Source of the DNA: Raja brachyura
Lineage: Eukaryota
Reading direction: 5' to 3'
DNA: 64,000 nucleotides
NCBI GenBank assembly: GCA_963514005.1
Contig: OY740804.1
Coordinates: 2,294,001 to 2,358,000 of the forward strand
Positions within the stretch are counted from its first letter, which is position 1; every line of letters starts with the position of its first letter. The translations under genes were made by a program, and so were the position numbers. Shown piece by piece: positions 12,822-58,636 of the stretch. The notes under the pieces are model-generated. The model saw only the letters and a program-made list of their open reading frames with translations. It was not told the origin of the DNA and made no database searches.

Positions 12822-13217
12822 CCAATCACTGCCTCCCACGGGGCATTGGCTGGAGCCAGCCGCGACCAATCCCAACGCACCGCCGGCTCAGATTGAGTAT
12901 AAACTGTGAAACCAGCGCAGGTGCCAGGGCTGTGGTGGTGACGTGGCGTGGCTGGGACATCCAGTCCGAATGTTGGCCGGAGCGAGACGTGGTGGAGACA
13001 CAAGCAGGATGTGTGGGGCGCCTGGTTGGCCGCTGGCAGCTGGGATGGCGTTGTTCTTGTTAAACGTTAACGGCTGATGCAAGGACACGTTTGGCAGAGG
13101 GTGGAGAGGTCAATGAGGGTCTGGAGACACCGGGAGAAGGTATAAAAGGGGCGAGCAATGGCAGGAGATGGAAGTAAGACCGGCCTCGTCAGCCTGTGTG
13201 GAGACTCCGGAGCTGGT
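12822..13217 (+). promoter_or_regulatory. IgV copy 2 promoter and non-coding exon 1
   Basis: ERSE CCAAT-N9-CCACG at 12822-12840, UPRE-like TGACGTGG at 12939-12946, TATAAAA at 13141-13147, donor at 13216. Confidence 0.65.
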
Positions 13218-25808: not shown

Positions 25809-28800
25809 TTAAGGCCAGTTGCAGCATTTACAGGATGAGTCGAAGACCAATCCTGCGGCACAGCTCTTCACGTAGGTCCGACCATCATCGCACTGGTAGA
25901 ACTTGTTCTTGTTCTTGGGATCGGGGAAGGTACCATTCGCTTTGCCCTGACAGAAGCCACTGCCTCCACCACCGCTGCCTCCACCACCGCTAGGAGCATC
26001 AGTAGGTGGGACCGCCGGCTTCAATGTTGTCTTGGATGGGACGCAAGCTGCAGAGAAACACAGTTTGTTATGTTCTCCTAAAGTCTTAGGAGAATTAGGC
26101 GATTTAGCCCATTGACTTACCCCACCATTCAATCATGGTTGATCTATCCCTCCCTCTCAACCCCATTCTCCTGCCTTCTCCCCATAAACCCTGACACCCG
26201 AACTAATCAAGAATCTGTCCATCACCGCCTTAGAACGCAGGTCCACAAAGTATGAATATCCCAGTCAATGGGATTATGCCACTGAACCCCCCTCTCACCA
26301 ACTCCAGAGGGATCCTGACCTCACATCTACCCCAGATGCTGGTCTATAAAAAGAGACACAATGTGCTGGAGTAACTCAGTTGCTTGTTCTCTATACCCAC
26401 CACTCCATGTGTGTAAAACGTAGCTATCACACCTAGTCTTACCACTATCTGCCTCCACCACCCCCGGTAGCGTGTTCCAGGCACCCACCACCCTCTGTGT
26501 GAAAGACTGGTCCTGCACATCTCCATTACCTGCAGAGATGCCAAGGCCAGAGTGCAGAGTGTTGATGAGGGGGTAGGGTCCCTGGTGACAGAAGGCACCA
26601 GAGAAGTCATCCAGAGCCAGATCCCAGACCATAGCTCCTCCATAGTTGTTCTTCTTCAGCCACTCAACCTGGAAGACACGGTTCACATCTTTACACCAGC
26701 ATCCCTCAGTCAATAATGGTGTCTATGATGCGCCGGAGAAAGCTTTTTATCGGGATTCATCACAACACGGTTTGGGAATGGCTCCATCCAAAACCCGCAG
26801 GAAATTGCAGGGAGTTGCTGACGCAGCCCAGACCATCACGTAAACCAACCTCCCTTCCATTGACTCCATCTACACCTCGCGTTGCCTCAGCAAGGCCACC
26901 AGCATAATCGAGGACCAGTCTCATCCCAGCACCAGAGAAATAAAACAGAAATTCCAAGTTTCCCCGATGTGAATCCTAACCCCTTTCTCCTGCTTTCTCC
27001 CCATAACCCCTGATACCTGAACACCATGAGTTTATGGTGAGCTGGAAATATTTTGTAGAATGTAATGATTCCAAGGATTTTGAAGCATAATTCTGGAGCT
27101 CACTGTTGGAAACTCTGCAGTAGATATTGAGATAAACGAGACCACGATGGCTCACGTGGAAAGGGTGGAACTTCGATGGTCAGATGTACCTTGTCTCCGA
27201 AGCTCTTGACGTTGTCATAGCCGACCCATATTCCATTCTTGAAGGCGTACGGGGTGTCCTGTGGGGCGTTCCATTCGGCGGTGGCACCATTCAGGAACCC
27301 GCAGATCTGTTCAGAGAAGGAGATGTTAGGGACCAATCTTGTCGAAGTGGAAAAAAATCATGAGAGGAACCGATCAGGTAGATGCAAAGTGTCTCTTGTC
27401 CAGTCGGGGAATCGACAACCAGAGGACATAAGGTGAGGGAGAAAGATTTAATAGGAATGGTGCTGGTTCGAAAGGCCGAATGGCCTACTCCTGCACCTAT
27501 TGTCTATTAAACCTGAGGGGTAACCATTTGACACCGAGGGTGGTGGGTGTATGGAACAGATGGGTGGAGATAGTGACAAAAGCTGGAGGGGAACAGGAGA
27601 CAAAATAGTGTCAGATACTGATAGAAGAGGAACAGAGAGATGCGCAAAGAGAGGAGGAAAGAGATATGTGAAGAGAAGGGAGAAAGACATGAAAGAAGGA
27701 TAGAAAGAGGAGAGGAGGGAAAGATATATAAAGAGAGGAAAGAGAGATATGTCCAGAAAGAGGAGGAGAGAGATGTAAAGTGCGAGGGAGGGATGTGGAG
27801 AGAAGGAGATAGCGGGGAGGGCAAATAGGAAGGGGAGGATAGAAGGGAAATGGGGATCTCTGAGAGAAGAGGAGGGGAACGGAGAACGTGGGTGTGCGAT
27901 GTTTCGGATGGAGATCCTTCCTCATGTGTCCATCTATGTTGTGTGTGGTTATTCAGTATTGGATTGGAAGATAACATTGAGTAAAGGGCCACGCGGTTGG
28001 ATTAGTCGGTAGGTACAGTACCTCATAGTAGGCCAGGAAGCCGGCTTGGCGGGTGAATTTGCCGGCTGGTCCAGCACCTCCTGCTGGGGCACCCACGGCC
28101 GTGCTGGACGAGGTCAGTCTGAAAGTGTGTCCGTAGGTGGGGAAGCCCACATTCAACTTGTCCACTGGAGCCCCCTTGCTCTTCCAGTAGTTCATGGCAT
28201 ATTCCTGCAGGGACACAGTTGGCATCAAAGGACTTTAGGCTCATGTTTAACATTAGGTTTATTATTGTCACGTGTACCGAGGCACAGTGAAAAGCTTCCA
28301 AACAGATCAGATAATACCGTACATAAATACAATCAAGTCAAACTCAGGTACAATAGGTAGAACAAAGGGGAAGATACAGAGTGCAGAATATAGTTCTCAG
28401 CATCGTAGCGCATCAGTTCCACAGACAAAGTCCAATGTCCACAATGGGGTAGAGGTGAATCGGACAGTACCCTAGCTTAAGGAAGGACCGTTCAGAAGCC
28501 TGATAGCAGAGGGCAGGGAGCTGTTCCTGAGTCTGGTGGTGCTCGCTTTCAAGCTTCTGTACCTTCTGCTAGACAGGACCAGGGAGAAGGAGGAATGACC
28601 GGGGTGGGACAAGTCTTTGATTCTGTCGGTTGCTTTTCTGAGGCAGCGTGAAGTGTAGATGGAGTCAATGGTGGGGAGTGGGGTCTGTGTGATGGACTGG
28701 GCTCCATCCACAACTCTCTGCAATTTCTTGTGGTCTTGGGCTCAGAGCTGTTCCCAAGCCTAGTTGTGATGCAACCCCACTGTCTGCTCTCCATGGTGTT

Positions 28801-31800
28801 TGGAACAGTTATATGGACTCGGCTAAATAGGTTTATAAATTCGGGGAGAGGAAATGAAAAAGTTGAGCAGGATTTATTTTTCTTGAGCACTTACCACATT
28901 GAAGTGGGTGTTGGTGTAATCATTGTCATTAGGCAGGGCATAGAGGGGGCTGTTCTCTCCAGTAACGTGGCTCCAGGGACCATAGAAATCGTAGGTCATC
29001 ACGTTGAAGAAATCAACTACCCTGCAAGAGAGGAGACCGGGTCACCCTGATACTCCATGCCCCAAATTAACATCAGAACACAGAACAGTACAACACGTGA
29101 ACAGGCCCTTCTACCCACAATGTCCGTGTCAAACATGACGGCAAGATAAACTCATCTCCTCTGTCTGCACGTGATCCGTATCCCTCCATTCCCTGCATAT
29201 CCACGCGCCTATCCACAAGCCTCTTAAACAACACTATCGTATCTGCCTCCATCACCACCCCTGGCAGCGCATTCCAGGCATCCACCACCCTCTGTGTGTA
29301 AAAAAAACATGCACATCTCCTTTAAACTTGAACATGGTGCCAAGTCCATCACTTATCTACATGCACATCACCAACATCCCTCCATGCCCAGCATTATCAT
29401 GTGCCCATCTAAAAGTATTTTAAATGCACTAATGTATCTACTTCAACCACCACCCCAGCAGGTTCTGGCTGTCTACCCTATCTATGCCTCTAGTGATTTA
29501 TAAACTTCTATCAAGTCTCTCCTCAACCTCTGATGTTCCAGAGGAAACAATGCAAGTTTGTCCAACCTCTCCCTGTAGCTAATCCCCTCTAATCCAGGCA
29601 GCGTTCTGGTAAATCTCCTGTGCACCGTCTCCAAAGCCTCCACATCCTTCCTGTAATGGAGACAACCAGACCTGCACGCAATGCTCTAAATACCTCCTGG
29701 CTAAAGACCGACAGAGCTGCAAGTTGGCTTCCTGACTCTCACGCTCAATGCCCCGACCAATGAAGGCATTGAATGCATTAGGGTTGTGGATGGATCTCAA
29801 TCAACGTGCTGGAAGCTCCCACCATTGGAATTCTGGAGCGATGAAAAACTAGTTCAAATACGACGTCAAACTGGCTAAACTCCCGAGATGAAAGCCCACA
29901 GGAAAAGTTGGGTTTCTTTGTGTGTAGAAGGACACTCACTTGCCGAGCTGAGGAACCTCGTAGCCAGTATCAATGTTGCTCATCCCACCAGCAACGGCAG
30001 CTGAGAGCAGCAGGCGTGGCTGTCCTGTGCTTTTCCCCTCGGCCTCGAAGGCAGCCATCAGCTCCTGTGGGTCAGAGAGATCGAGGGCTCCTTTAGCAAG
30101 AGGTCAAGTCTAGTCTTAGCAAGGGTCCCGACCCGAAACGTCATCTATACTTTTTCCCCAGAGATGCTGCCTGACCCGCAGTGTTACTCCAACACTTTGT
30201 GTCAATTTCAAGTTTGGTTTAGTTTGGTTCAGAGATGCAGCGTGGAAACAGGCCCTTCGGCCCATCGAGTCCACGCCGACCAGCGATTACCCTTTCACTC
30301 TAGTTATATCCTACATACTTGGGACAATTTACTGAAGCCAATTAACCTACAAACCCACACACATTTGGAGTGCGGGAGGAAATCAGAGCACCTGAGGTCA
30401 CGGGGCGAACGTACAAACTCCGTACAGACAGCATCCATGGTCAGGATTGAACCCGCGTCTCTGGCGCTGTGAGGCAGCAACTCTACCCCTGCACCACCGT
30501 ATCGCCCAAGAGTGGGGAAGAAGCTTTTTAATCCAAACCTCAAAATGGTGCTTGGTTCAAATTTTATTAAATTCTTAATTTCTGAATTCTTAAATTCCTT
30601 TGTGTAATCTGTGAAAATCTGTCCTTTGTGATCTTGACAATAAGTTGCATTTATTGGATAAATTTTCAAGTCATAGAGTTATGCAGCGTGACAACAGACC
30701 CTTTGGCCCAACCTGCCCGCACCGACCAATGTGTCCCATCTACACTAGTCCCACAAAGTGCTGGAGTAACTCAGCGGGTCAGGCAGCATCTGAGGAGATA
30801 AAGGATGGGTTTGGCCTGCGTTTGGCCCATTTATTTTAACGAAACCCATAGTGAGATGTACTTGACCGCACCTGAGCCAGGACAGTGTAGAGATGCTTGT
30901 CAACAGGGGGACTTCCTCGAGATCCAGGATATTCCCAATCGATATCCAGACCGTCAAAGCCGTACCCTCTCAGGAAGGCGATGACTGACTTGATGAAGAT
31001 TTGCCGAGTTCCTGATGAGGCGACCATCGCGGTGAATCTGCAGGTGGGGTGAATGTGGGGAGAGGAGTTAGAAATGAAATGTGCCGGAGACACGAGGAAC
31101 GGCCAGTGACCCAGTGACTCTGCTGTTATATCCTGTCATGTACAGATTCATCCAAGCTTTTGTTAAATGCTCAAGTGGTTAAAGAATTACTCCTTTCTCC
31201 TGTTGTCATCTGAAGTTTCATGTGCAATTATTCTTTTTGAAAATAGCGTTTAGTTTAGTTCAGAGATACAGCGCAGAAACAGGCCCTTCGGCCCACCCAG
31301 TCCGCACCGACCAGCGATCCCCACACACTAACACTATCCTGCACACACAAGGGACAATTTACATTTATACCAAGCCAATAAACCTACAAATGTGTACGTC
31401 TTTGGAGTGTGGGAGCAAACTGAAGATCTCTGAGAAAACCTAGGCAGTCACAGGGAGAACGTACCAACTCCACACAGACAGCACCCGTAGTCAGGATCCA
31501 ACCCGGGTCTCCAGAGTTCCACTAGTACCACTACGCCACACACTATTGAAAGCATTCTTTCTGAAAATTATATTCTTTTACTTTTTGGCAAGCAATATCC
31601 TATATTGTTCAAATTACAATTTGCAAACTGCTCTGTTTAATAATACTCCTGAAACAGTTCACTGTAAAATTATCCCCTCGATATTTATCACTTGGGATAT
31701 CATTACTAGAGCCAGGATGTTTAAGCACTAAAAAATTCTGAAATAGGCAGGCAAAAAGGCATAATAAAATTATTTAAAAAAGCATGAGAAAGGCATTTAT

Positions 31801-34800
31801 TGACATAAAAAGGCATGTATTTCCACCACCAAAATATGGTTAAAAATGATAATGTAAAGTTATAGTACATTAAATGATCAAAGTTGCCTGGTTGCACATA
31901 ATTACTAGCATTTTTTCAAATTATCTGGTGTTAAACTATGCCGTGTGTCAGACAGAATATGCTTCAGTTGTGAAAAACTTCTTTCTACCCCAGCTGAGGT
32001 CACTGGTGCATACCTGAAACAAGCTACAGACTCTATATTCATGTCAATGTCTTGTGCATTGCAATTACCTTTGAGAACTTTAGCTACGTTTTGTATTTCT
32101 TCAAGATCTTTGTCAGCTAAAATCACTCTCTCACGTTTTCCTTGTATATCTTCACCGACACCGCCAGGAACTTTACGAATAGCGTCAGTTACTTAGTGGA
32201 AAACCTGCAAGTTGTTCATTAATGTTTCGCCACCTTTCTCAAGGGAAGTGGATCGTGAAAAAGGCATCTTGCCAAAATCATCAAAAAAGGCATGAAACGC
32301 CACATGGCATTAATGGCAAAATTACCATACACACCCACTGTTTACATCGGGCACATGGAACTACAGGTGCTGGTTTACAAAAAGAAAAGACACAAAGTGC
32401 TGGAGTAACTCAGCGAGTCAGGCGGCATCTCTGGAGAACATGGATAGGTGCCGATTCCTGTTAAGACTGTTCTTCAGGCTGAGTTACTGAGGAGTTACTC
32501 CAGCACTTTGTGTCTTTCAATATTCATTCCATATGTCAATTGGAAAATAACTCTTATTTTTTTTAATCTAATGCTAACGTAAAAAGTTTCCATCTTACTT
32601 CTGGGTGCCAAAGTTCCATCCTCCAATGGACAGCAGAGTCTTGAGGTTTGAATTCCTTAAAAAAATGGACAAAATGTGGTTTTAGAATGATGTTTAGAAC
32701 AACAGAACATTTTCAGAACTTCTCAGGAACTTCTGGATCTTCTGTTTTTTCGCCCCTTTGGTGTTCCGTTTCATTGAAGGGATTTGCCTCCGTCTGGATC
32801 TCAAGGGGGTCACAGAAAATGAGGTACAAGTTCACGCAACAAGGCTTCATAAGCAAGGGCCAGTCTCACTCTGTGGGCTGAAGGGCCTATTTCCTCAATC
32901 TGTGACTCAATGATTCTGTTGGCCTGTCCAATAGCTTTCTCCTGAATATCCCCCTGGACCAAGTCACCTTTCAGACAGGGGAGGTGGATGAGATGAGAAA
33001 ACCTTCAATAAATGGATGTGTAACAGGGTCATGTCAAAGACCCTGCTGACCATTGATCACCTGTTCACACCAGTTCAATATTATCCTACTTTCTCATCCA
33101 CTCCCTATGCACTTGGGGCAATTTGTAGAGGCCAATTAACCTAGAAACCCTTTGTAATGTGGGAGGAAACCGGTAATCTAGAGAAAACCTACACCGTCAC
33201 AGGGAGAACGTGCAAACTCCACAGAAACAGTGCCCGAGGTCAGGATCGAACCCAGGTCTCTGGCGCCCTGAGGCAGTGACTCTACCCGCTGCCCCACTGT
33301 GCCGCCCGGTACGTATAACAGATGGATTCTTGCCACATACTCTTCAAAACAACTTGTTCACTTAGATCGACCATTTTGAAGAGTTTGAAATCCAATGTTC
33401 ATTAAACACTGGATGTCCCTTCACTTACAGCAAGGACCAGGGAATTCATGGTTAAATTTAACCCAATCAGACCCAAATCAGCAGGGTTCCACTCCACCCA
33501 TTTGTCTCCATCGAGCTGTATCTCTGAGAAGTTAGGCATCACCTTGGTACTTAAAGTCTAAATTATCCCACTGAACCATCCTCTCACCAACTAGAGAGCG
33601 GCCCTGACCTCCCATCTACCTCATTGGAGACACTCGGACTATATGTAATCAGACTTCACTGGACTTTATCTTGCACTAAACATTATCCCCTTCATCCTGT
33701 GTCTGTACATTGTAATCATGTACAGTCTTTCTGCCGACTAGTTAGCACGCAACAAAAAGCTTTTTGTTGTACCATGGTACACGTGACAATAATAAACTAA
33801 ATTAAACTAAATTAACTGTGGAATATGGGTTATGGGATATTGGTTTGGGGAATATCCAATACAATGACTGGTTAACACGCAACAAAAACTTTTCACTGTA
33901 CCTCAGTACAGGTGACAATAAACTAAACTGGACAATGTAAACATTGCAACAATGCCCGACATTTGAGACACAAGGTTAAGCCCCTGTCCCATTTTCCCGA
34001 GTTACTCACGAATTCTCCCGAGTTTTCCCCTTGATTCAAACTCGGAGATGCCAGCCGTAGCTACTCAGGGCTATTTTTTTTACTCGTGGACATTTTTCGA
34101 CATGCTGAAAAAACGTCCCGATTTACCTGATTCCCCCGAGTACCTACGGCTGGCATTACGAGCCGCTACGAAGTATCTGCGGACTCCTACCGACTCGCTA
34201 CGGACATTCTCCGAGTTTGAATCAAGGGGAAAACTCGGGAGAATTCGTGAGTAACTCGGGAAAGTGGGACAGATGCTTTAGTATTTATTCAGCAACTGTA
34301 CTTGTTCTTCAGGCTGTTGATCTCATGGTAGAGTTTTGGGTCGTTCCATTCATAGATGGCGATCTGATTGCTCTTCATTCCAGCGAAGGCGTAGATGATG
34401 TGGGTGCAAAGGCAAGGGTCCACGTTCTGGGGCATGTATTTACCCTCTCCTGGTCTGTACTGCGCCCAGTTGGTGAAGTAACACACCAGCCTGTAGGCAG
34501 AGCCTGGGCAAGGGAGAGACAGGGCGGTCAGGACAATATCTCTGTGGCACTCACACAAAGCAAAGCAAGGCTGCAAATGAACAAAGACTCACCCAGTTGC
34601 AGGCAGGCCAGTAAGACCACCGCTGGAACAGAAAACAGAGAGCAGCGTGTTAGGATTACGACAAACCGTAATAAGTCAGGGATTACGGGGACAGACGGGG
34701 AGAATGGGATTGAAAGGGAAAGATAGATCAGCCATGATTGAGTGGCTAGAGTACACTTGATGGGCCGAATGGCCTAATTCTGCTCGCATCAGTTATGAAT

Positions 34801-36133
34801 TTATGAAACCTTGGCTGTATTACGGCCTCTACACAATGAAAATGTTATATAAGTGTTTGGGAAACTATGAAGGTCTATCTTGTGGGCAGCACGGTGGAGC
34901 AGCAGTAGAGTTGCTGCCTCACTGTGCCAGAGACCCAGGTTCGATCTTGACTATGGGTGTTGAACGTGTGTGGAATTTGTACATCAACCCTGCTAGTATA
35001 AATTGATTGTTCTGTTTCTGGTACATATGACAATAACACACCCTTAACTCCCTCTCCCTGTGACCATGTGGGTTTTCTCCGGGAGCTCTGGTTTCCTCCC
35101 AAATCCCCAAAATGTGAGGGATTGAAGGTTAGTTGTCCCTCTGTAAAATTGTGAAGGGCTGAACAGTGGTCAGCATGGACTCTGTGGGCCGAAAGGCCTT
35201 GTTTCTATACTGTATCATTAAACTAAACCTTTCCTATCCATGTACCTGTCTGAATGTCTTTTAAATGTTATTATACTTGCCTCATCTACCTCCTCTGGCA
35301 GATCGTTCCATATACTCACCACCCTCTGGGCAACAGGTTAGAGTCATAGAGTCACACAGTCATAGAGTCAAACAGGCCCTTTGGCCCAATTTGCCCATGC
35401 TGACCAAGATGCCCCACCTAAGCTTGTCCCAGTTGCCCCTGGATTCACCTTTAAATTTTTTCCCACTCACCTTAAGTCAATGCCCTGTAGTTTTAAATTC
35501 CCCTTCCCTGGAGAAAGGCAGAGACCATACTTCATATCTCAGCCGCTTGTGATTTTCTAAATGTCTCTGATGGTATTTACAGAGTGCTGGAGCAATTCAG
35601 CGGGTCAGGCAACTTCTCCGGAGAGAAGAAATGGGTGACATTTCGGGTCCGTTGGAAAATACAAAATATTAAGAAACTACGAACTGCAGCAGTTGATTTA
35701 CACCAAAGATAGACACAAAGTGCTGGAGTATCTCAGCGGGTCAGGCAGCATCTCCGGAGATAAGAGTTGGGTAGAATTGAGGCCCTTCTTCAGACACCTT
35801 CATAATAAAACTTGGGAAACAATTTAATCTGTTCTCATCCTCATTTAATTTCTAAACCTGATTCTTTCAAAAAAGTATCCCAATATCAAAAGGAATTAAA
35901 CAGCAAAAGGCTCTTACGGAGCGAAGGAGATAGGCGACGTTTCGGGTCGAGACCCTTCTTCAGTCTGAAGAAGGGTCTCGACCCGAAACGTCGCCTATCT
36001 CCTTCGCTCCTTAGATGCTGCTGCACCCGCTGAGTTTCTCCAGCTTTTTGTGCAACCCTCGATTCTCCAGCATCTGCAGTTCCTTCTTTAACAGCAAAAG
36101 GCTCTTACCTGTTCCAAGAAGTAACTTTGCCAT
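25809..36133 (-). CDS. chia: Acidic mammalian chitinase-like GH18 chitinase with C-terminal CBM14; complete, 11 coding exons, 469 aa
   Basis: GT-AG exons read by hand (minus strand): 36133-36109 (MAKLLLGT), 34622-34593, 34503-34302 ([15 protein letters not shown]), 32655-32599 ([13 protein letters not shown]), 31037-30872 ([12 protein letters not shown] catalytic motif), 30064-29940, 29021-28895 (VMTYDFYG), 28204-28022, 27306-27190 (WVGYDN), 26668-26530 ([13 protein letters not shown]), 26047-25809 (linker + CBM14 ...CKCCNWP*). Total 1410 nt in frame. Exon sizes 25/30/202/57/166/125 match the vertebrate CHIA/CHIT1 layout. Orthology (CHIA vs CHIT1-like) is not resolved. Confidence 0.93.
27590..27880. 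repeat. Purine-rich (GA) low-complexity tract in chitinase intron 8
   Basis: Almost exclusively A/G on the plus strand. Confidence 0.8.
31710..32330 (-). mobile_element. hAT-type DNA transposon remnant
   Basis: Same transposase C-terminal fragment (31905-32126), with an internal deletion relative to the first copy. Ends approximate. Confidence 0.6.
33979..34277. mobile_element. PIF/Harbinger-type MITE (same insertion in the duplicated segment)
   Basis: Same TIRs and TTA TSD, at the same position next to chitinase exon 3. Confidence 0.8.
35918..36089. mobile_element. Palindromic Penelope-type insertion with hammerhead-like cores in chitinase intron 1
   Basis: ~93-bp near-perfect palindrome (35918-36010) carrying CTGAAGA-stem-GAAACGTC on both strands, flanked by a 19-bp duplication. 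A related inverted pair is at ~10955-11185. Confidence 0.6.
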
Positions 36134-36168
36134 CTTGTTACTGTTGCTGACTAGACCTGAGCTGCCTC

Positions 36169-36175
36169 TTTTATA
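36169..36175 (-). promoter_or_regulatory. TATA box (TATAAAA) of the complete chitinase gene
   Basis: TATAAAAG on the minus strand ~35 nt upstream of the ATG at 36133. GATA-type motifs lie further upstream (~36222, ~36284). Confidence 0.65.
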
Positions 36176-37730: not shown

Positions 37731-38099
37731 CCATAACCCCTGACACCTGTACAAATCAACAATCTATCCATCTCTACATTAAAAATATCCATCGACCTGG
37801 CCTCCACAGACAGCCTTCCATGGGAATGAATTCCACAGATTCACCACCCTCTCACTAAAGAAATTCCTCGTCATCTCCTTCTTAAAAGCTGCCCTTTAAT
37901 TCTGAGGCTGTGCAAGCCTTGTGTCCGAGACTCCCACACTAGTGGATTACGTGCGGGCTGAAGAGATTAATTTAACCTCTCAGCATCATGATCAACATCA
38001 TGTTCAGCACGGACATTGTGGGCCGAAGGGCCTGTACCTGTGCTGCACTGTTCCACGCTCTGTGTTACATCGTTTTCTCAATCACAGTGGAGTGGGTGG

Positions 38100-38408
38100 G
38101 TGGCCAGAGCGAGACGTGGTGGAGACATAAGCATAATGTGTGTGGCGCCTGGTTGGCCGCTGGCAGCTGGGATGACGTTGTTCTTGTTAAACTTTAACGG
38201 CTGATGCAAGGACGCGTTTGGCAGAGGGTGGAGAGGTCGCGGCTGACTCCGTCCAATGTTCCGTGGGAGGCAGTGATTGGTTGAAAGTACGTGAGTGCAG
38301 GCAATGAAGCTCAGGAGAAGCCGGGAGTTGGTATAAAAGGAGCGAGCGATGGCAGGAGATGTGAACAAGACCGGTCTCGTCACCCTGTGTGGAGACTCCG
38401 GAGCTGGT
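38100..38408 (+). promoter_or_regulatory. IgV copy 3 promoter and non-coding exon 1
   Basis: ERSE (CGTGG-N9-ATTGG) at 38262-38280, extra CCAAT at ~38253, TATAAAA at 38332-38338, donor CTG|GTAACC at 38407. The block is conserved in all three copies. Confidence 0.7.
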
Positions 38409-38641
38409 AACCACCCTTGTGGATCCTTCAAGTATCTGTGAGTGATGGGGGTGGGATTGTCTCTGTTCTCTGTTCCCTCAGTTCAGAAGCCTGATAGCAG
38501 AGGGGAAGAAGCTGTTCCTGAGTCTGGTGGTGCGCGCTTTCAGGCTTCTGTACCTTCTGCTAGACAGGACCAGGGAGAAGGAGGAATGACCGGGGTGGGA
38601 CAAGTGATGGAGTCATAGAGTCATACAGCGAGACCTTCGGC

Positions 38642-38778
38642 CCAACTTGCCCGCGCCCACCAACTTGCCCGCGCCCACCAACTTGCCCGCGCCCACCAAC
38701 TTGCCCGCGCCCACCAACTTGCCCGCGCCCACCAACTTGCCCGCGCCCACCAACTTGCCCGCGCCCACCAACTTGCCC
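38642..38778. repeat. 18-bp tandem repeat (CCAACTTGCCCGCGCCCA) x~7.5
   Basis: Perfect array in the intron of IgV copy 3. Confidence 0.95.
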
Positions 38779-39086
38779 CATCAAAACTAGACCCACCTGC
38801 CTGCGTTTGGCCCTTACCCCTCTAATCCTGTCCTATCAATGTACCTGTCTAACTGTTTCTTAATCATTGTGATAGTACCTGCCTCAACTACATCTTCCGG
38901 CAGCTCGTTCCAAACACCCTCCACCCTTTATGTAAAACAGTCACCCCTCAGTTTCCCATTAAATCTTTCCCCCCCTCACCTTAAACAGATGTCCTCGGGT
39001 TCTCGATTCCCCAACTCTGGGCGGGTTCAGAGAATGTCATCATGAATCCTACTGAGTTGCAATAAGGTTGTTTCACCCACAGGAAC

Positions 39087-39614
39087 ATGGGACTGCAGAG
39101 ATGGATAGGATTCTTGGTCCTTGTGGAGATGGTGTGGCAAGTCTCTGGAACTGGAACAGGTTCGATCTCCAGAGAATGGGGAGAGGAAGCAAACTTGCCC
39201 GGGTGGAACGTACGGACGCCTCGGCAAGTCAGCGATGAACAGCTTCCAAGATGCACGGACAAGCCAGGTTATGCCGGTCATCGCCCTTTAATCATTAATC
39301 TGCAGGTGGTCGTTGTGTCTCCGGGTGGTAGTATTACGCTGCCCTGTAAAATATCCAAGCATTACAGTAAACCTAAACTCGTCACATGGAAAAAAGGCAA
39401 TGTTGCCATTGCCACGTATCACGGTGTGTTTTCAGTGGGATATCAGGGATCTTATCCCCACTGGAAGTTCGCGAATGACAACGTGTTCAGACGTCGGGAC
39501 GCCTCGTTGGTACTGTGGGGGGTACAAGAGAAAGATGCCGGGACGTATACCTGCATTTGGTCCACTTCTCATCATGGAAAATGTCATGTATTGACCTGGC
39601 TGAAAATAGAGTGA
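39087..39614 (+). CDS. Secreted single Ig V-type domain protein, copy 3 (175 aa; single coding exon)
   Basis: MGLQRW leader, RTPR propeptide end; GGSITLPC, VTWKK, DASLVL, DAGTYTC. Acceptor at 39081-39082. Confidence 0.85.
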   Translation: MGLQRWIGFLVLVEMVWQVSGTGTGSISREWGEEANLPGWNVRTPRQVSDEQLPRCTDKPGYAGHRPLIINLQVVVVSPGGSITLPCKISKHYSKPKLVTWKKGNVAIATYHGVFSVGYQGSYPHWKFANDNVFRRRDASLVLWGVQEKDAGTYTCIWSTSHHGKCHVLTWLKIE

Positions 39615-42600: not shown

Positions 42601-45409
42601 CTCGCTCCCCGGGGCGATGTAAGTCCGACGTCGGGGCTGGGGGACGTCCTCAGCGGCCTGGACCCTGGGTCGGCCCCCTCCTACCGGAGTCCGCGGCTCC
42701 CAAAGTCCGCAGGCCGCGCCGGGTGGAGATGCAATGCTGGAGGCCCTCGGCAAAGGGCCCCAGGACTCCATGAAGTTCAGCGCCGCCCGCGTTGGAAGCT
42801 CTCCCAACCAGAGCTCCACGGTTTTGGAGCAGCGGCCCAACGCTCCACAGCTCCAACGGCGACCCAGGTAGGCATCGCCCCCTCTGCGGTGACTCCAGCG
42901 CCGCCGCCGCTGTTGCAGCTCTGGTCCGGTTCCCGGTTCCCGGTCCCCGGCAGGAAAGGTCGCTCGGATCCAGGAGGTAGGCCGCGAGGTGGGGGGGGGG
43001 GCGAGGATGCGACTCGGAGAAATAGTCACGTCCCCGCCAGGAAGTGACTGGGAGTTAGTTTCCCCCTTACCCTGCCCCTCTCCCTCTATGCCTCTCATAA
43101 GAGACTTGGGAACAAGTAGTCCGGGAGTACCTAGATCGTAAATGGTCCCTGTGGGTCGAGATTGCAGATAAACTATCTGTGGAAAATGTTGTTGTTAAAG
43201 AGCCGATATAGAGCTGAATAATGGGACAGGCTCGGGATAACAGTGATGTGGGAGCTCCGAGCTTCGGTACAACATATGTGTTATTTGGATCCGGGAATTT
43301 GGATCCGGGAAAACGTAAAGATTACATGATGATCTGGCGAAAGGATTTAAAAGAAAAGAGAATACGGTTGGCCAAAAGAATAATAAACAATTGGTAATGC
43401 AAAAATGGAAACCGAAGCAAAATATCCACGGGGATCCCTTATCTGGCATGGCAACCCTGTTTATAGAGGAGGGGGATGAGGAACTAATTCGGGAATGGTG
43501 TAGACCACCTCCCCCATATGCCCCAGAAGAAAATGAGACTGATAGCGACTCGGAAACTGTAAAGGAAGATGAGAAGGAAGAAGGGAATGGGCTGAGGCAG
43601 AAGAGGAAGGAAGTGCAGTAATTGAATCCATCAGTATAGATTGGTTACTCCACACTAACCAATTGTAGTGCTTTATTTGGATCTGGGAGAGTGATTCCCA
43701 GACTTCATGCTGAAGTGTACTGTAAGTGATCTTTAATAAAATTATGTTGTACTGCATTATGCGAATAGTACTGCATTATACATCATTTACAATCAGTGAG
43801 AAAGTGAAACGAAACGAGCAAAGGAAGCGCAAGGCCAAGAAACAACAGGAGACCCCAAAGATAATACCAATGAGAGCACTGCCAAATGCATTGGCTGAAC
43901 CCCGACCAAATGGTCTGCCGGCAGTAATGCATGCATACAGCCGCTGGAAGCTGCAGGAGGTGCTGTTGATTTCTTAAAAATGCCCCAGACTGAATTAAAG
44001 ATCTACCAGGATTATATTACAGTCAACGCTGACCATGTATGAGGCAGCTGTGAGGGATGTGTTTGCCCGAACGTCCGCCATCCTAAATCCCACTGAGAGG
44101 GCACGATGGAAGGCCCTCTTGAGTGCCGCAACGTGGGCGGCTCTCGAGGCACTGTACCCGGACAACCCCGCAAGAATTGAGGCTGAGCTCACCGCCCTGA
44201 CTCAATGCCTGAAACGACCTAGTGATATAGGCAAAGTAATTGAATGCAGACCCTTATCCAAGGAATCAGCGCATGATTTCTGGAAGAGAATTACGACAGC
44301 GTATCGTACTTATGCAGGAGACGAGAACTTTAACCACGAACCAACAGTCTGCACAGTTTAAAACAATCTTGATACAACTTAAGACCCTAAGGCTGCTCCA
44401 CAGCTCAGCGGTAATACAGTGTGCTGATGGCCTTCTGTTTGCAAGTACAGAGATAAGGAGAATGCTGAGGACACTGATGAACTACTAAAAGCCTTCCACT
44501 GCTGGGGTTACATTCTACCCAAATGAAAGGTAGTCCAGGGGCATACGTAAGTAAAATTAATGGTATATTGCTCAGTGCTACAGAACGAGCATTGACACCC
44601 ACCTGGATGGATCCCATTGTGGACCACACCAGCCCAACCACCCCTAAACAGATGAGGGCTTTTCTGGGCTTGGGTTAATTTCTGCCGGCAGTGAATCCCC
44701 GACGTGGCATTATACATGAAACTACTGTCGCCCCTTGCCTCTGCCAAGGCACCACAGCAATTCACTCTCTCATTCCAACAAGAAGAAGACTTTCGCAATT
44801 TAAAAATAGTGCTGGCTACTGCACCAGCCACTGGATGCCCTCTACATGGTCGCCCCTTCCAGCTCTATGTGACGAACCTACTGCAAGCCTTAGCCCTCCC
44901 GGTTCACCAGCCATTATTAAGTGTAATGCCCATACGAGTGGCCATGACAAAATCTCCCAAGGTAATGCCCTAGCTGACATTACTGCTCGCACGGCAACTT
45001 GCGAATTCTGCACATTTGTCCCCACAGAACCAAAGATTCTCGGAGACAGAACGGCTCTGCCAGACATGGGTGATGTAAAGTTAATGCAGGGGATCGCCTC
45101 TGCCGTGCAACGCGATTTTTGGAAACGAGAGTGTTCCTCTGTTGACTCTTTGATGGGCCTCTGGCTCACCCCTCTCAGACAGGTTTGTGTACCTGATGCT
45201 TTTCTGTCCGTTCTTTACCACTATATACACTCCCTTACGCATGCTGGTAAAGAGGGAAGGGAATGTGTAATGTAGCTTGCACTTTGAAGCTTTAATGAAA
45301 TGGCCGTGTTTACGAGGGGGGAGTAGCAGCAGCAGCAGTAGAGCCAAAGAGAGTGGGATACCAAGGATGTGTAAATGTGTGTTTTGGGTCGAGACCGTTC
45401 TTCAGAATG

Positions 45410-48419: not shown

Positions 48420-51400
48420 TTTTATTTCGGTAGTCACGTGAGTGACTACGTGAAGGCCCCGCCAGCACGCATGCGCGACATATCGTCGTACGCATGCGGA
48501 AGCGACGGTCGGGAGGAGCGGGGCTCCTCCAGCGTAAGTTTAAATAACTTACGCCAGGTAAGTCTCACCGGAGAGTGATCGTCGACGAGAAAATAGTATC
48601 ATTATGGAATCACGGAAGTCCAAGAGAGCAGCGGCGAGAGCAGCTGCTATGGAGAGCAGCCAGCGTACCGCCTCTCCAGAGCTACAGGTATTACCTGCAG
48701 CTCCTGACTTCTCGTCCATGAGGGCCGTTGGTACTCCACGGTCGGGCGGCAAACCCACCCGGAAGTCGGACGGGGCCGGCGACCCAGCTGGGTCCGGTCC
48801 CGAGGACACCCCGTTCGCAGATAGCGACGGAGGTCGTCTAACCCGCATGGAGCGGATGATGGAGCAATTGCTCCAACGTGACCTGCTAATGCAGGGGCAG
48901 AGTCACAGTGGGCCTCCTCGCAGGCTCACGGCAGGTTCCTACCAAGGACTGCCAAATGTCTCACCCTCCTCGCAGGGGAGCATTGAGGGTCAGAACTGGG
49001 CTGACCCAGAAGAAGGGGAGCTGGCTGAACAACCATCTGTGTCAGAGGTGTGTGAAGAATATCTGGATATGGTAAATAAACATGCAATGCCGACACAGAA
49101 AGGCCTACCTATCCACCCTAAGCTGGCAGCCAGCATTAACTACATGGCGACCAACCAGCTACAGGAACAGGCCATAAATTCTACAGCTGATAAATATATG
49201 GCTCCTGAAAACTGCAACTCACCTTAATGTCCCTGCGGTGAACAACCCTATTTGGGGGAATATGAGCCCCTCGAGCAGAGGGCATGAAATCAAACTTCAA
49301 AGAATCCTAAAACTCTTAACCGCCGGGATCACAGCAGTGGCCAGAACTGCAGTGGGGATAGAGTTGCCGGAAGAACTGCAAGATGCCCTGGCTCTACTGT
49401 GTCATACACAGTATGAGATAAACAATTTCAGGAAGAGCATCATAAAGCCGGCGCTTAACCCCAAGTTTGCGGGGTTGTGTAAGCCTGGGAAGACTCAGCC
49501 TCCAAGCTTGCTGTTCGGGGAAAACCTTCCCAAGCAAGTAAAAGATCTTGATGAGGAGGCCAAGGCCTTGGGCCTGATCAAGGTTCCCGGGCCTACCAAA
49601 CCTCATTACCCACAAAGACAGCACCCCTACACACCCACCGGACAGAGATACCATCAGAGACCTGCCGGTGGTGAAAGCTCGAAGGCCGGCCAACCTGCAC
49701 AGCGGTCTTTTTTAGGCCATGGCCCAGCCCAGCCTTCTTGGAAGATGCGCCACTCCTACAACACGATGAATCAACAAAGAAAACAAGGACAGAAACCGCA
49801 ACACCGGCAATAACCATGGAGGTAGGTGGGTCTGGTTTCCCCAGAAACACATCTTGCCTAAATTCACTTTATGTAGGGGGCCGGTTGCACATGTTTTATG
49901 AAAATTGGTGCACTTTTACCTCTGATCCTTTCATACTCAGGAGTATTCAGGGCTACAAAATTGAATTTATTCACGAACTCCCTACCCCGGTCCAGCATTC
50001 ACCTAGCCGAAAATTCATACTCTCTCAAAAAGAGAGGGTAGCAGGGCATGCTGAACTATACAGATTAATTGAAAAAGGGATAATTGAGAAGGCCACCAAA
50101 GAACCACAGGAGTTCGTGTCTAATATATTCACCAAAAACAAAAAAGACGGCGGTTGCCGCATTATCATAGATTTGACCGAACTGAATACTTCTGTTCAGT
50201 ATGTTCATTTTAAAATGGACACCTTTGACACTGCTATACAGTTAATAGATTATGGGTACTACATGGCATGCATTGACCTCAAAGATGCATACTATTCAGT
50301 ACCAATACACAAGGATCATAGGAAATATTTAAAATTTATCTGGATGGGACAATTATGGCAATACAAAGCCTTGCCTAATGGGTTATCATCAGCACCCAGA
50401 TTGTTTACCAAGATATTAAAACCAGCCTTGGCCTACTTAAGGAAACAGAATCATACTGTTATGGCCTATCTTGATGATATCCTCATTGTTGGGGAAAGTT
50501 TGGAAATGGCTACATTGGCAGTTACAGCCACGAAACATCTCTTTCAGAAGCTGGGTTTCATTATACATCCAGATAAATCAATATTAAAACCCTCTACCAC
50601 CATGAAATACTTGGGGTTCAATATCGACTCAGTGCAAATGTCTATCACGTTGCCACTAAGTAAGGTGGAGGACTTGATAGAGGCTTGCAGGAGCCTTATT
50701 GGCATCAAGGACCCATCCATTCGGCAGGTGGCCAGGATAGTGGGAAGATAGTGGCTGCCTTTCCCGCAGCACAATATGGGCCTTTACATTATCAAAACTT
50801 ACAAAGAGCCAAAATTATAGCTCTCAAAAGTCATGCAGGCCATTTCGATAGGCCTATGAAAATACCAGAAAAGGCAAAAGCCGAATTAAATTGGTGGATG
50901 GCTAATGCCCAATATTGTTCCAAACCCATCACTATCATCAATCCCTCGATCACCTTACAAACGGATGCCAGTGCCAAAGGTTGGGGAGCTACTAATACTA
51001 CCTCTAGTTGTGGAGGTAGATGGAGTGCACAAGAGTTAACCCTATTCAAAAATTTGGGAATTAACTATTCAGAAATGCTGGCAGCATTTCACGGCCTCAG
51101 GGCATACTGCACAAACATGCACAAAGTTCATGTTAGGATACAAATTGACAACACCACGGTGGTGGCCTATATTAACCACATGGGCGGAATAAAGTCGATA
51201 TCGTGTGATGAATTGGCCAACAATATCTGGCTCTGGAGTCTGCTAAGGGAAATTTGGATCTCAGCCACTTACCTCCCAGGCAAGCTAAACACAGTGGCAG
51301 ACACCAGGTCACGCAAATTTAACGACAACATAGAATGGATGTTGGATCGAAAAGTGTTCACAGATATTGTAGAACGTTATGGGACACCAGATATCGACCT

Positions 51401-53205
51401 CTTCGCGTCCAGATTAAATCACCAACTACCAACATATGTTGCTTGGGAACCAGGCCCTGGGGCAGTAGCGATGGACGCTTTCACGCTACATTGGGGGGAT
51501 TTGTTCTGCTATGCATTCCCCCCTTTCTGCCTCATCAATCGGGTCTTGCAGAAAATAAAACAAGATTCCGCATCGGGTATTTTGGTGGTGCCCGACTGGC
51601 CTACCCAACCATGGTTCCCAGCGGTACAGAAGATGGCCACAGAACCTTGCATTCGGGTCAATAAACGACCTAGCCTGCTCATTCATCCTGTCACAGGAGA
51701 ACATCACCCATGTTATGACCGCATGGACCTGTTAATTTGCAGATTTTTAAACGGCCTCTTCGCGGATTCGGACTCACCAGCAGAACGATAGGCACCATCT
51801 CGGCGGCATGCAGGGAGTCCACCAGGAAGCAGTACCTCACCTACATCAAGAAATGGGAAGGATTCTGCGCTACTACCAACACTACATATGAATCCGCTAC
51901 CATTACAGAAGTGCTGGAATTCTTGGCTACCCTACACTTTGATGAGGGACTGAGCTACAGTGCCATAAACAGTGCCAGGAGTGCACTATCATCCTACTTG
52001 GGCCAGGGGAGTGACCAATTGGGAATTGGATCACATCCATTAGTGTCCAAACTAATGAGAGGAATATTCAATTCCAATCCCCCTAGGCCCAGATATAACC
52101 ATACGTGGGATATCAGCACAGTCCTAACAATGCTGCGAGGATGGACACCTAACACGGGACTCACTTTGGCAAAGCTCACATACAAAATGGTAATGATTAT
52201 GGCACTTATCACGGCACAACGGGTCCAGTCTCTGCACAAACTTAATCTGGATGCCATGACTATCACCAATGATAAAATCACTTTTCATGTGCAGGGACTG
52301 TTGAAACAAGATCGACCCAGACCGTCTGGTCATACCTTGGAATTTCTGGCATATCCAGCAGAAACTCGACTCTGCATCGTCACGTTAATTTCACAATATA
52401 TCACAGTCACCTAAAATCTCAGGGGCACGGAGACAGCTTTGCTTATGAGCCACAAGAAGCCCCATCATAAAGTCACGGTGCAAACCATTTCTAGATGGTT
52501 AAGGGTGGTTTTGGATGCGGCGGGGGTGGACACTAATATATTCAAATCTCACTCCACCAGGGCGGCATCCACTTCGGCTAGGAGGATGGAAGTACCATTG
52601 GACCACATCCTGGCCACAGCGGGTTGGAGTAATGAAAGGACTTTTCACCGTTTCTACAACAAACCCGTGGCCTCCCCTGACACTTATGCAGGGAGGATTT
52701 TGAGTACTGTCAAATAATTTACCCCTATGGGATATTTATTTTGTTTTGGTATGAATAAATACCTTATTTTGTTTTTCAGCCAGTGTCATGTCTGAATTAC
52801 GTTCATCCTCTCATCCCAGCATAGCGGTGTGTGAGCATGGAGCTTCCAGGGCATGAAATCACAGAGCTTTGAAATCTTCACGTAGTCACTCACGTGACTA
52901 CCGAAATAAAATAGTAAGATTAAACGAGAACTTACCAGTTTGAAGTTTGATCTTTATTTTATGAGGAGTTACGATGAGGGATTACGTGCCCTCTGCTCCC
53001 AACCCTCTACTATAAAGATCACCTGGTATGAAAGTTCTCTCTTATCTTACTATATTAGTCATTGTGACTGTCTGTGATTTCACACCACTGCTTTGAAGAA
53101 TGTCGCGCATGCGTGCTGGCGGGGTCTTCACGTAATCCCTCATCGTAACTCCTCATAAAATAAAGATCAAACTTCAAACTGGTAAGTTCTTGTTTAATCT
53201 TACTA
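48420..53205 (+). mobile_element. DIRS1-type retrotransposon A (full length, inactivated)
   Basis: Inverted termini and internal complementary region (~52876-52989). gag 48604-49813 (frameshift ~49222); RT/RNase H/methyltransferase-like 49816-51791 (YLDD, TDAS, DLFAS, YAFPPF; frameshift ~50745); YR 51737-52717 (in-frame stop at 52412). Confidence 0.93.
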
Positions 53206-55658
53206 TTAATGTGCAGTCTGCAAGCATCTCTTTGGAGAAGATTTGGGCAAGTAAAATTCAAGGCTGCGATGGGTGTGATAAGACACCCTTTGTGGGTAAG
53301 ACTCCCGGCTACCGGCGTGCATATCAGCACTGCCAAGCTAGCGGCACATACTGCTACACTGAGGCTGTTTGGAGCACCAGACATACACAATTAAAACCAA
53401 GCCAGAGGCCTTTTTCATGCTCAGGTTCACAGCGCTCACCGTGGAGGCAGCACACTCCACATACTCAGTATCGTTCCCCAGCAGGCCACGATACCAGAGC
53501 CAAAGGGACAGAGCAAAATCTAGGGTCAGTTGACTCTATTGATCAACCTCCTAAGGCCAATTTGGTGTTGTCAGTCTCAGGGTTTGCTGGACTGGTTCGT
53601 GTTGGCTGCTGGTGATAATCACCTCTTGCCTATTATTTTATTGGCAGCCTTGGTGGTTTTTATAGCAAGTTATTTCTTAGAAACTGCCTTGATCACTCCT
53701 AAAGCCGCCGTCTGTCTCGTCATGGACAGCAAAGCGACCAAGAGGTGGAGGCCGTTGAGGTATGCAAATATTATTCCATCAGTCGCATGAGATGTGCTGA
53801 CGATATTCAATTTCATTTCGGAGTCACTTGAGTGACTTCGTGAAGAGCCCGCCGGCGCGCATGCTCGCCATATCGTCGTATCGCGTTGCTGCGACGGCTG
53901 GCGGTGGAGCGCGCTCCTCGCCAGCCCTTCATAAGGGAACCACTGAGGTAAGTACTCTACCTTAAGTTGGTGGTTCTTGTTGCGTTTTGTTTTCGCAGCA
54001 AGGACATGGATGGGAGCTTTAAAGGCCGGAGAACGTCTGGACGAGGTCGCCGGTCAACAGTCTCGGAGCCAGTGATATCGGCAGTACCTGCAGCGCAGGC
54101 TGGGACAGGGGCGGAATTGTCGGTGAGTCCTGTGTTTACAGGTCCGGATCCGCCAGCACACCACAGCTCGGAGGAGTTCTACGAGGAGGAGTGTGGTGTG
54201 CCGCCAGAGCAGGAGGACCCTGCCATGGCAGTCAGGTCGTCAGCAGGCTTGCTGACGGCCTCGAGCAGAAGGGTGCGTGTGGCTGCACGACCCTTTTCAC
54301 CCAGCCCTCCGAGGAGGGGAAGGGCAGGAGCCCGAAAGTCTAACCCTGTTGGGGCTAAGGCTTCACCTGCCGCCGAGGAGCGGTCAGGTTCTAGGACGGG
54401 ACCCGGGGCGGCTGTGAGGTCCAGTCGACGCCCCCCAACTCTCGACGCCGGGACGGGTCGGTTGAGTCGGGTCTCGTCACGGTCGCCGAGCCCCCCATGG
54501 ATGGGTGGGCGAGACCATGCGTCGGCGAGGTCCACGACGTGGGCTGCCGGCAAGCCTGCGCAGCTATCAGGTATCCAGGCTGCGGCTGGTGCCGACATCA
54601 CGCCGCAAGTGTCCTTAGTGGCAGCGGCGTCCGCTCCCGCTAAACGGAGGCGGTTGAACACGCCCACGCAGGAATCGCGCAGTTTCGCTTTGGCAGCTGC
54701 TAGCGACGACTACCGGCATCGGGTGGGCCTCGATGAGGTGCGGGCCGATGATAGGGGCCCCGGCCATTTTTCAGAGCCGGAGGACTCCGACCACCTGAGT
54801 GTTCAGGGTGAAGGGCGTATTGACTGGATGGAGCGGCTGCTGGAGCTCCTGCTTCATGGTCAACAGCAGCAAGCGTCCAGCAGCGACAGGCACAGGGCTG
54901 TTTCACCAACTTCTACCATCAGCCTGGAGCAGCAGGAAGAGGAGGTATTGGTCGACCCCATCCCACCTCCGTCCGATTTACCAGCGGAGGGCCTTCTCGA
55001 TGTGGCCACTAAGTTCGCGGCCCCACACTCATCTGGGCTTCCCCTGAACTCAAAATTGGCAGCCACAGTGGACTTCCTCAACAACCATCAGTTACAGGAG
55101 GAGGTTCTCATGCACGCCATGAGCCGTCACAAGGCTCCAGCCAACTGCAACTCCCTCAACGTGCCTGTGGTCAATACGCCGATATGGGGCAATCCGTCAA
55201 CAGGAGCTGAAAATTCAGCGGATCCTGAAGCTCCTCACGGCCGGAATTACCGCCTTTGTGCGGTCGGTTGATGGGGATGAGTTAAACTTGGACCAGGAGG
55301 ATGCTCTCGCTCTGCTGTGTGCAACTCAGCATGAAATAAATGGGTTTCGCAAAAACAGCATCCGCCCGGCGCTCAACCCTAAGTTTGCAGGGTTGTGCAA
55401 ACCACCGCCGCCGCCGCCGCCCCGTCAGCTCTTTGGCGAAGATCTCTCTAAGAGGGTCAAAGAGCTTGACGAACAAGCCAAAATGGTGGGACTCATGCGC
55501 CCTCACAGCGCCCCCACGCCGTCGGGCTCGAAAGCTCCGCTTGTTCGACCACGAGGATCTGCCAGCACCTCTACAAGGACCTACCCTCCAGCTCCACCTC
55601 GTTACCAACCACCCCAGCACCAGGGGGCTTTTTTAGGACAAGGTCGACAGAAACCCTG

Positions 55659-57659: not shown

Positions 57660-58636
57660 ACAGGCCGTTAGCCCAATACGGCCTCTCAACTCGGACCATG
57701 GATACCATTGCGGCGTCGTGCCGAGAGTCAACAAGGCGAAGATACCGCTCACATATCAAGAAGTGGGAAGCCTTCTGCAGCCGCTCTCGCATCACGTACG
57801 ATGCCGTGACTATAACCGACGTCCTGGAATTCCTCGCGGGGTTGCACCATGATGAACACTTAAGTTACAGTGCCATCAACAGCGCCAGGAGCGCGCTGTC
57901 ATTCTACCTCAAGATTGAGGTGGGATCCAACAGGCTAGTGTCCAGGCTCATGCGGGGTATATTCAATATGAATCCGCCTACACCACGCTACTATATCACC
58001 TGGGATGTCAGGGACGTTTTAACCCTGCTCAGGACGTGGTCCCCCATGGAAGGGCTCCAGCTGGACAAACTCACCATGAAGCTGGTGATGTTACTAGCGC
58101 TGACTTCAGCACAGAGGGTACAGACACTCCATAAACTACGTGTCGACAGAATGATGTCTACCCCTACAGAAGTAGTCTTCTTCGTTGATGAGCTACTAAA
58201 GCAGCATAGACCTGGGTGCACAGGGCTGCAGCTGAAGTTCCCGGCATACCCCGCAGATGCTAGGCTGTGTTTAGCCTCCCATATCCGTCACTACGTCAAG
58301 GTGACGGCATGCATCAGAGGAATGGAGAGATACCTGCTTGTCACTCATAAGAGACCTCATCATCGAGTGACAGTCCAGACGATATCCAGGTGGCTCCGGG
58401 TCATCTTGGGTAAGTCAGGTATCGACACTAATGTGTTCAAGTCTCATTCCACCAGGGCTGCATCGACGTCGGCGGCGAGGGTCATGGAGGTGCCCATGGA
58501 CCATATTCTCGCCACAGCAGGATGGGCTAATGAAGCTGTGTTTCAGCGATTTTATAACAAGCCTGTTGCTGCTCCTCTACAGTTCGCGGAAGCCGTGCTG
58601 AATGCAGGTCGAGAACGTGGAGGTGTCCCCGCATGA
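57557..58636 (+). CDS. DIRS tyrosine recombinase
   Basis: Catalytic-type residues AQRV, HSTR, AGW, RFYNK; overlaps the end of the RT ORF. True start uncertain. Confidence 0.88.
   Translation: MGPFKGLPRISYSPCLRGATSLPWLFKFVGLQVLNRPLAQYGLSTRTMDTIAASCRESTRRRYRSHIKKWEAFCSRSRITYDAVTITDVLEFLAGLHHDEHLSYSAINSARSALSFYLKIEVGSNRLVSRLMRGIFNMNPPTPRYYITWDVRDVLTLLRTWSPMEGLQLDKLTMKLVMLLALTSAQRVQTLHKLRVDRMMSTPTEVVFFVDELLKQHRPGCTGLQLKFPAYPADARLCLASHIRHYVKVTACIRGMERYLLVTHKRPHHRVTVQTISRWLRVILGKSGIDTNVFKSHSTRAASTSAARVMEVPMDHILATAGWANEAVFQRFYNKPVAAPLQFAEAVLNAGRERGGVPA

Follow-up and report, generated by a model that had tools for sequence, protein, structure and literature searches.

The response element for ER stress (ERSE), CCAAT-N9-CCACG, is known mainly as a switch that raises the folding capacity of the ER. 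PMC8301375 defines the consensus of ERSE and UPRE and gives the established view that ATF6 binds CCACG only with NF-Y on the CCAAT box, and that XBP1s binds both the ERSE and the UPRE. HSPA5, HSP90B1 and CALR, whose products enter the ER, have this exact ERSE-I close to where the gene begins (PMC8301375). The three skate genes described here carry it too, upstream of a predicted start and of a coding sequence whose product is predicted to enter the ER; they differ in having a single element each, in not encoding ER folding machinery, and in that the function of the element is predicted. In a second system, CRELD2-ALG12, one ERSE with an adjoining NF-Y site acts bidirectionally between head-to-head genes (PMC3091781). 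The skate locus also has an ERSE with an adjoining NF-Y site and a head-to-head gene pair; however, the second NF-Y site lies 8 bp from the ERSE in CRELD2-ALG12 and 4 nt from it in the skate, the intergenic distance is <400 bp there and >2 kb here, and both of the CRELD2-ALG12 targets serve the ER (PMC3091781). A third parallel is functional: CREBH together with ATF6 drives the secreted defence proteins CRP and SAP, and ATF6 functions in fish (PMC3844873). In the skate, control by such UPR-type bZIP factors is predicted; CRP and SAP are pentraxins of mammalian liver instead of Ig domains, and they do not form a multigene family that diversifies behind a converted promoter.

The window, by which we mean the whole stretch of 64,000 nucleotides of Raja brachyura DNA that was analysed, contains three IgV genes lying among chitinase genes (Table 1). 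Each consists of a TATAAAA box, a short exon 1 ending at GTGAGT, an intron, a single coding exon and a 3' block with AATAAA that is shared by the three. The same exon 1 is spliced onto the same exon 2 in six of six Leucoraja gene models, which lends the intron independent support. Splicing of the V exon to a further, downstream exon is unlikely: all three frames run into a stop where the domain ends, the GT at that place has a weak context and is in phase 2, and the shared AATAAA block follows.

Table 1. Features of the three IgV genes, in window positions.
Gene	Feature	Position	Strand	Remark
Copy 1	ERSE	10697-10715	+	gene on minus strand, hence ERSE reversed relative to the gene
Copy 1	second CCAAT	10720-10724	-	4 nt from ERSE, opposite orientation
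Copy 1	GACGTGG	10858-10864	-	
Copy 1	TATAAAA	10639-10645	-	followed by a 61-nt deletion; 37 nt left to donor GT at 10601
Copy 1	CDS	9527-10060	-	177 aa, single V-set domain
Copy 1	AATAAA	9377-9382	-	
Copy 2	46-bp module	12822-12867	+	ERSE 12822-12840 and second CCAAT 12845-12849; lies further upstream than in copies 1 and 3 and in inverted orientation
Copy 2	copy 2-only segment	12868-12972	+	end of third CCAAT (12866-12870), TATAAA (12898-12903), perfect UPRE (12939-12946)
Copy 2	GACGTGG	12986-12992	+	
Copy 2	gap junction	13111-13112	+	63-64 nt missing, which in copies 1 and 3 contain the ERSE
Copy 2	proximal TATAAAA	13141-13147	+	donor GT 13248, acceptor end 13832
Copy 2	CDS	13837-14346	+	169 aa, single V-set domain
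Copy 2	AATAAA	14778-14783	+	
Copy 3	GACGTGG	38113-38119	+	7 of 8 UPRE bases; in shared distal promoter block 38097-38237
Copy 3	second CCAAT	38253-38257	+	4 nt from ERSE, opposite orientation
Copy 3	ERSE	38262-38280	-	reversed relative to the gene; CCAAT with full NF-Y context
Copy 3	TATAAAA	38332-38338	+	transcription start predicted at about 38361-38363 from TATA spacing
Copy 3	non-coding exon 1 (predicted)	38361-38437	+	donor GT at 38438; 5' end predicted
Copy 3	intron 1	38438-39082	+	repeat fragments and an 18-bp tandem array
Copy 3	CDS	39087-39614	+	175 aa, with signal peptide, pro-piece and a single V-set Ig domain before the stop
Copy 3	AATAAA	40996-41001	+	within the 3' block common to the three genes

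The Leucoraja models place their start ATG (n = 6) 10 nt past the TATA box, which counts against a working ERSE, as does a product that is not ER machinery. Of the window copies, only copy 3 has this ATG in frame; copy 2 has it out of frame, and in copy 1 it has been deleted. We read it as lying outside the transcript, with the models over-extended, and the MAGD extension of the N-terminus, in frame in copy 3 alone, was rejected as a conserved start. Alternatively, transcription might begin upstream of the predicted start, of which the Leucoraja ATG is the single hint. Two local features of these first exons and introns are also recorded. The tandem array of the copy 3 intron is perfect (38642-38778, 7.6 copies) and has fewer than two units in copy 1, and the deletion in copy 1 (window 10638-10639) is bounded by short GGAGC repeats and leaves a first exon of perhaps 14 nt.

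The surroundings can be described briefly. A complete GH18 chitinase with a CBM14 domain (25809-36175, minus strand, first codon at 36133) and IgV copy 3 stand head to head. The linker before CBM14 contains a natural GGGGS repeat, and the chitinase promoter has a GATA-like site, a CCAAT box and a TATA box, with no CCACG. A second chitinase copy at 1-3049 (minus strand) is 97% identical to 31898-34682, but the window has no homologue of the promoter and first exon to go with it, so that it is likely a 5'-truncated duplicate. Two DIRS-type retrotransposons (48562-53205 and 53952-59113) encode reverse transcriptase, the second also with Dam-like and tyrosine-recombinase domains, and remnants follow at 59400-62100. 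An LTR retrotransposon at 3640-7458 has 190-bp terminal repeats that are 90% identical, and an integrase frame. Broken frames with a PPPY motif at 43319-45275 have no Pfam match; we take them to resemble gag and pol of an endogenous retrovirus.

An earlier note on this DNA had reported CCAAT-N9-CCACG at the three IgV genes, about 50 nt upstream of TATAAAA in copies 1 and 3, together with a UPRE at copy 2 and GACGTGG in all three promoters. All of these sites are present where it had placed them, the three ERSEs have an identical spacer, the distance to TATAAAA measures 51 nt in both copies, and the UPRE is perfect. What had been missed is a fourth exact ERSE with a different spacer at 59534-59552, within the reverse-transcriptase remnant, where the sequence resembles the reverse-transcriptase frames of the DIRS-type elements of the window. 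This fourth match fits the chance mean of 0.12 per window obtained from window shuffles, and it weighs against function that a chance ERSE occurs in the very window in which the promoter ERSEs amount to a single independent occurrence. At least four matches were found in 0 of 100 window shuffles, yet three of the four observed are one ancestral copy. When the spacer between CCAAT and CCACG was varied from 0 to 30, a length of 9 alone gave more than one match. Dinucleotide shuffling of the three promoters produced an ERSE in 112, 79 and 171 per 100000 (about 0.1%), and the probability of CCACG at +9, given the CCAAT box, is 0.002-0.004.

These figures bear directly on the main alternative to a working site, namely that we are looking at an ordinary NF-Y/TATA promoter, in which the CCAAT box is functional while CCACG is an accident of a GC-rich, CpG-retaining promoter that gene conversion then spread. 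We consider this explanation possible, if on the doubtful side. A genome contains thousands of CCAAT promoters, and at 0.002-0.004 per box we estimate that tens of accidental ERSEs should be expected in each. The accidental count estimated in this way would be similar to what PMC5890977 gives for a human scan, in which 39 genes had an ERSE-I in the 10 kb upstream; with one wobble allowed, PMC10700025 gives 20,565 human ERSE sites. The CCAAT box itself is accounted for by its own context and position. The NF-Y consensus, known to be YRRCCAATSR, is complete at the ERSE CCAAT of copies 1 and 3, is incomplete at that of copy 2, and is found in full at 7 of the 163 CCAAT boxes in the window. The conservation of CCACG, moreover, is not significant. 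None of the five variable columns of the module falls inside the 19-mer (P 0.06), nor do any of the 19 differences between copies 1 and 3 (P 0.18; P 0.28 for the 10 core bases), so that among the window copies selection on the 19-mer relative to its flanks is not significant (P 0.06-0.18) and the element is not significantly better conserved than its surroundings, which also speaks against a working site.

What an ordinary promoter explains less readily is the company that the ERSE keeps, because the UPRE and the cluster of CCACG near the copy 2 ERSE would need further accidents. The UPRE, TGACGTGG, occurs once in the window against 1.24 expected, and there is thus no window-wide enrichment; under the consensus used, TGACGTG(G/A), copy 2 alone has a full match, copies 1 and 3 having 7 of 8 bases. 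Like the promoter ERSEs, it is an exact consensus match, and it matches the first 10 bases of the ATF6 reporter element quoted in PMC6994954. A UPRE appeared in the 105-nt copy 2-only segment in 1346 of 100000 shuffles, four CCACG within 171 nt in 212 of 30000, and GACGTGG in the shared block in 1401 of 30000, all three being tests picked after the sequence had been inspected. GACGTGG occurs 11 times in the window, 4 times in the IgV promoters and 7 times outside them, and ERSE-II (ATTGG-N-CCACG) has 0 matches in the window.

Copy 2 departs from the other two in the placement of its element. Here the module is 89-93% identical to that of copies 1 and 3, and homology stops exactly at the CCAAT of the ERSE, which we count in favour of a working site; the ERSE is forward with respect to transcription and 300 nt upstream of the proximal TATAAAA. 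The earlier description of an ERSE in all three promoters therefore stands insofar as each gene has exactly one, despite the rearrangement, and falls short insofar as the proximal promoter of copy 2 has a gap where the ERSE should be. That copy 2 persists without a TATA-proximal ERSE is what an ordinary promoter would allow, although a displaced fragment that keeps the whole 19-mer would then need luck. A second TATAAA lies 57 nt downstream of the copy 2 ERSE, and an alternative upstream promoter is possible. At the upstream edge, copies 1 and 3 adjoin repeats, while copy 2 runs on into sequence that occurs nowhere else in the window.

The same rearrangement could be taken as the trace of a promoter captured from elsewhere; the earlier note had already proposed that promoter and first exon might come from an ER chaperone gene. 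On this account an intronless coding exon, whether a retrocopy or a shuffled exon, acquired the promoter and exon 1 of an ER-stress gene. The cassette in copy 2, with its ERSE, two more CCAAT boxes, TATAAA and UPRE, would be a remnant of the donor, and the ERSE of copies 1 and 3 an inverted templated insertion. Such an origin would be compatible with present-day function, and we hold it to be quite unlikely. In its favour, signal peptide and V domain are encoded in one exon, which is unusual for genes of the Ig superfamily; the cassette is non-repetitive in the window, dense in UPR sites, and has its ERSE close to the second TATAAA; a four-base microhomology, GGTC, sits at the module junction; and an 8-mer of the filler weakly matches the cassette (p 0.029, one of 16 comparisons). 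The pairing of an ERSE with an adjoining NF-Y site, as in CRELD2-ALG12, points the same way, while the difference in their spacing points away (PMC3091781). Against capture, the window contains no donor promoter, of an ER chaperone or otherwise, and exon 1 preserves no trace of a chaperone coding exon, since copy 1 has lost its upstream ATG frame by deletion, copy 2 has that frame broken, and the N-terminal extension of the relative in Narcine is unrelated. Of 16 local comparisons on where the 21-nt filler came from and which way the rearrangement went, two reached p ~0.02-0.03, which is too little to decide; copy 2 may be either ancestral or derived. The copy 2 promoter has no similarity to phage DNA.

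It is also conceivable, but in our estimation very unlikely, that a decayed LTR or other mobile element supplied both CCAAT and TATA. The homology that the three genes share has an abrupt 5' boundary (10880, 12972 and 38097-38101), and the locus is rich in retroelements. However, within the window the block is found at the three genes only, the TATA box is not followed by the AATAAA or ATTAAA that the R region of an LTR would need, and the search of Rfam for RNA families gave 0 matches at the gathering threshold.

The 5' block as a whole is 92-100% identical between the paralogs, with 92-96% in the distal promoter, 95-96% in exon 1 and its donor and 98-100% at the intron end, and the leaders differ by a dS of only 0.03-0.06 between window copies. 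The V regions, in contrast, are 34-42% identical among the window copies, with dS 0.51-0.75, dN 0.45-0.71 and a dN/dS of about 0.9-1, the boundary with the homogenised block falling right at an R-x-P-R/QV motif. In the tree, copy 1 groups with LOC129708939 (support 95/95), copy 3 with LOC129708937 (99/99) and copy 2 with LOC129708941/942 (87/89), and on this basis the V domains appear to be old lineages, each grouping with Leucoraja paralogs. At residue 21 the three window copies all have G, where the six Leucoraja paralogs all have A. A nearly identical 5' block in front of old V domains points to gene conversion across the promoter-exon 1-leader block. Given conversion in addition to shared ancestry, the three ERSEs count as one observation; the earlier note had already warned that the copies are not independent, and conversion makes that case stronger than ancestry alone. 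The most unusual established feature of these genes is their design and not their motif, a converted promoter-leader cassette placed before a fast-diverging V domain.

The three frames encode a hydrophobic leader, a pro-piece and one V-set Ig domain, and stop at the domain end. They lack a KDEL-type C-terminus, ending at the last V strand, and no 19-residue window exceeds 1.5 on the Kyte-Doolittle scale, as a transmembrane segment would. The product is probably secreted. In 9 of 10 skate sequences the R-x-P-R motif stands just ahead of the variable part, and we take it to be a proprotein convertase motif at which the pro-piece may be cleaved. A cysteine pair beyond the canonical Ig pair (in copy 3, Cys56 at 39252-39254 and Cys166 at 39582-39584) is invariant in 11 of 11 members and probably forms a second disulfide.

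From 48 candidates, a homologue search yielded seven uncharacterised proteins, of which six belong to Leucoraja erinacea and the seventh to Rhinoraja longicauda. When 1.84 billion representatives were searched with a profile, one more full-length relative came to light, from Narcine bancroftii, annotated as nectin-1-like and 31% identical over 183 columns, leader included; repeating the search with 11 sequences led from 3173 candidates to the same eight proteins, all of them batoid. Within the reach of these searches, the family appears restricted to batoids. All eight homologs are 175-221 aa long, longer forms being outside that search. Among the best 150 of 1783 profile matches, besides one Leucoraja member, only P0069 was matched over leader and V domain without a break; for the others the match was mainly to the Ig domain and mostly repeated several times. 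The ESM Atlas yielded generic V-set clusters and nothing more specific. In the literature searched there was no mention of the six Leucoraja LOC identifiers (within LOC129708937-946) and nothing on gene conversion in such a family, and among the matches listed there was none linking an ERSE with sharks or skates and no V-set mention for a secreted skate protein with chitinase. The ERSE is an element already known, and it is the family, and the ERSE on this family, that we did not find in print.

The predicted structure (mean pLDDT 68, with residues 1-54 unreliable) is nearest to the V domains of nectin, CAR, CD200 and PVR, with many families tied, and profile matches agree. The nearest solved structure is nectin-1 D1 (Z 14.4, rmsd 1.8, 106 aligned); Foldseek matched PVR and nectin-2, and profiles matched JAML and PVR. 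Identity to nectin, PVR, JAML and CD200 is 20-28%, with many families within 1-2 Z units. The V-set N-terminal domain is what the skate proteins have in common with nectins and PVR. The V-C-C ectodomain and the transmembrane segment are absent, the stop following directly after the V domain in all three skate copies, and the extra invariant cysteine pair and the pro-piece are further differences. Membership in the nectin family was accordingly not assignable, given one domain, low identity and many tied families. The VCBPs of amphioxus and Ciona are secreted V-region proteins that bind chitin, and the skate genes likewise place V domains, here probably secreted, in a chitin-related context, between chitinase genes. 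They lack a chitin-binding domain, however, no VCBP is among the 50 structural neighbours listed, and the adjacency of IgV and chitinase genes may be incidental.

We suggest as the best explanation, and give it an even chance on the strength of the sequence, that the ERSE is a working site for NF-Y and an ATF6/XBP1/CREB3-type factor, tying the family to transcription in secretory cells or under ER stress. NF-Y on the CCAAT box, some 80-85 nt upstream of the predicted start, would provide basal activity, and a bZIP factor of the UPR type, be it ATF6, XBP1s or a member of the CREB3 family, would bind CCACG nine bases away and raise transcription when the cell is a professional secretory one or suffers ER stress. 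The genes would thereby supply a probably secreted protein with a single V domain, the V domains of this batoid family being quick to diversify, and since promoter, exon 1 and leader would form one ancestral unit kept uniform by gene conversion, the family as a whole would answer to a single switch. The exact consensus and spacing, the complete NF-Y context that copies 1 and 3 have and the short, equal distance to their TATA boxes all argue for such a site, as do the adjacent chitinase promoter, which offers a plain alternative with CCAAT and TATA and no CCACG, the activity of ERSEs in either direction in reporters (PMC3091781), and the precedent of CRP and SAP (PMC3844873). Against it, context can mute even a perfect ERSE: ALG12 promoter constructs barely responded, and neighbouring sites can cancel the response (PMC3091781). 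The nearby UPRE, the CCACG cluster, GACGTGG and the retention of one ERSE per gene through a rearrangement tip the balance modestly toward function, and the proposed wiring to the unfolded-protein response is plausible.

A bolder version of the working-site hypothesis can be stated, although we think it unlikely. The proteins would be secreted, hypervariable single-V decoys or recognition proteins, and their conversion-uniform promoter would be a direct target of ATF6/XBP1, such that ER stress, caused for example by virus replication or arising in a chitinase-secreting gut cell, would release the whole panel of diverse binders at once; in the course of duplication the ERSE would have been moved and inverted, and one would still have been kept in each gene because it was needed.

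Should the ERSE not be functional, what is left is an ordinary CCAAT/TATA promoter on an uncharacterised family, and a clear case of a motif multiplied by gene conversion. If it is functional, ER stress would act in these animals as an alarm for the release of cargo, a logic that has so far been described for a few acute-phase proteins, and batoids would possess an unstudied immune or mucosal family in which a constant regulatory-leader cassette is joined to a variable binding domain.
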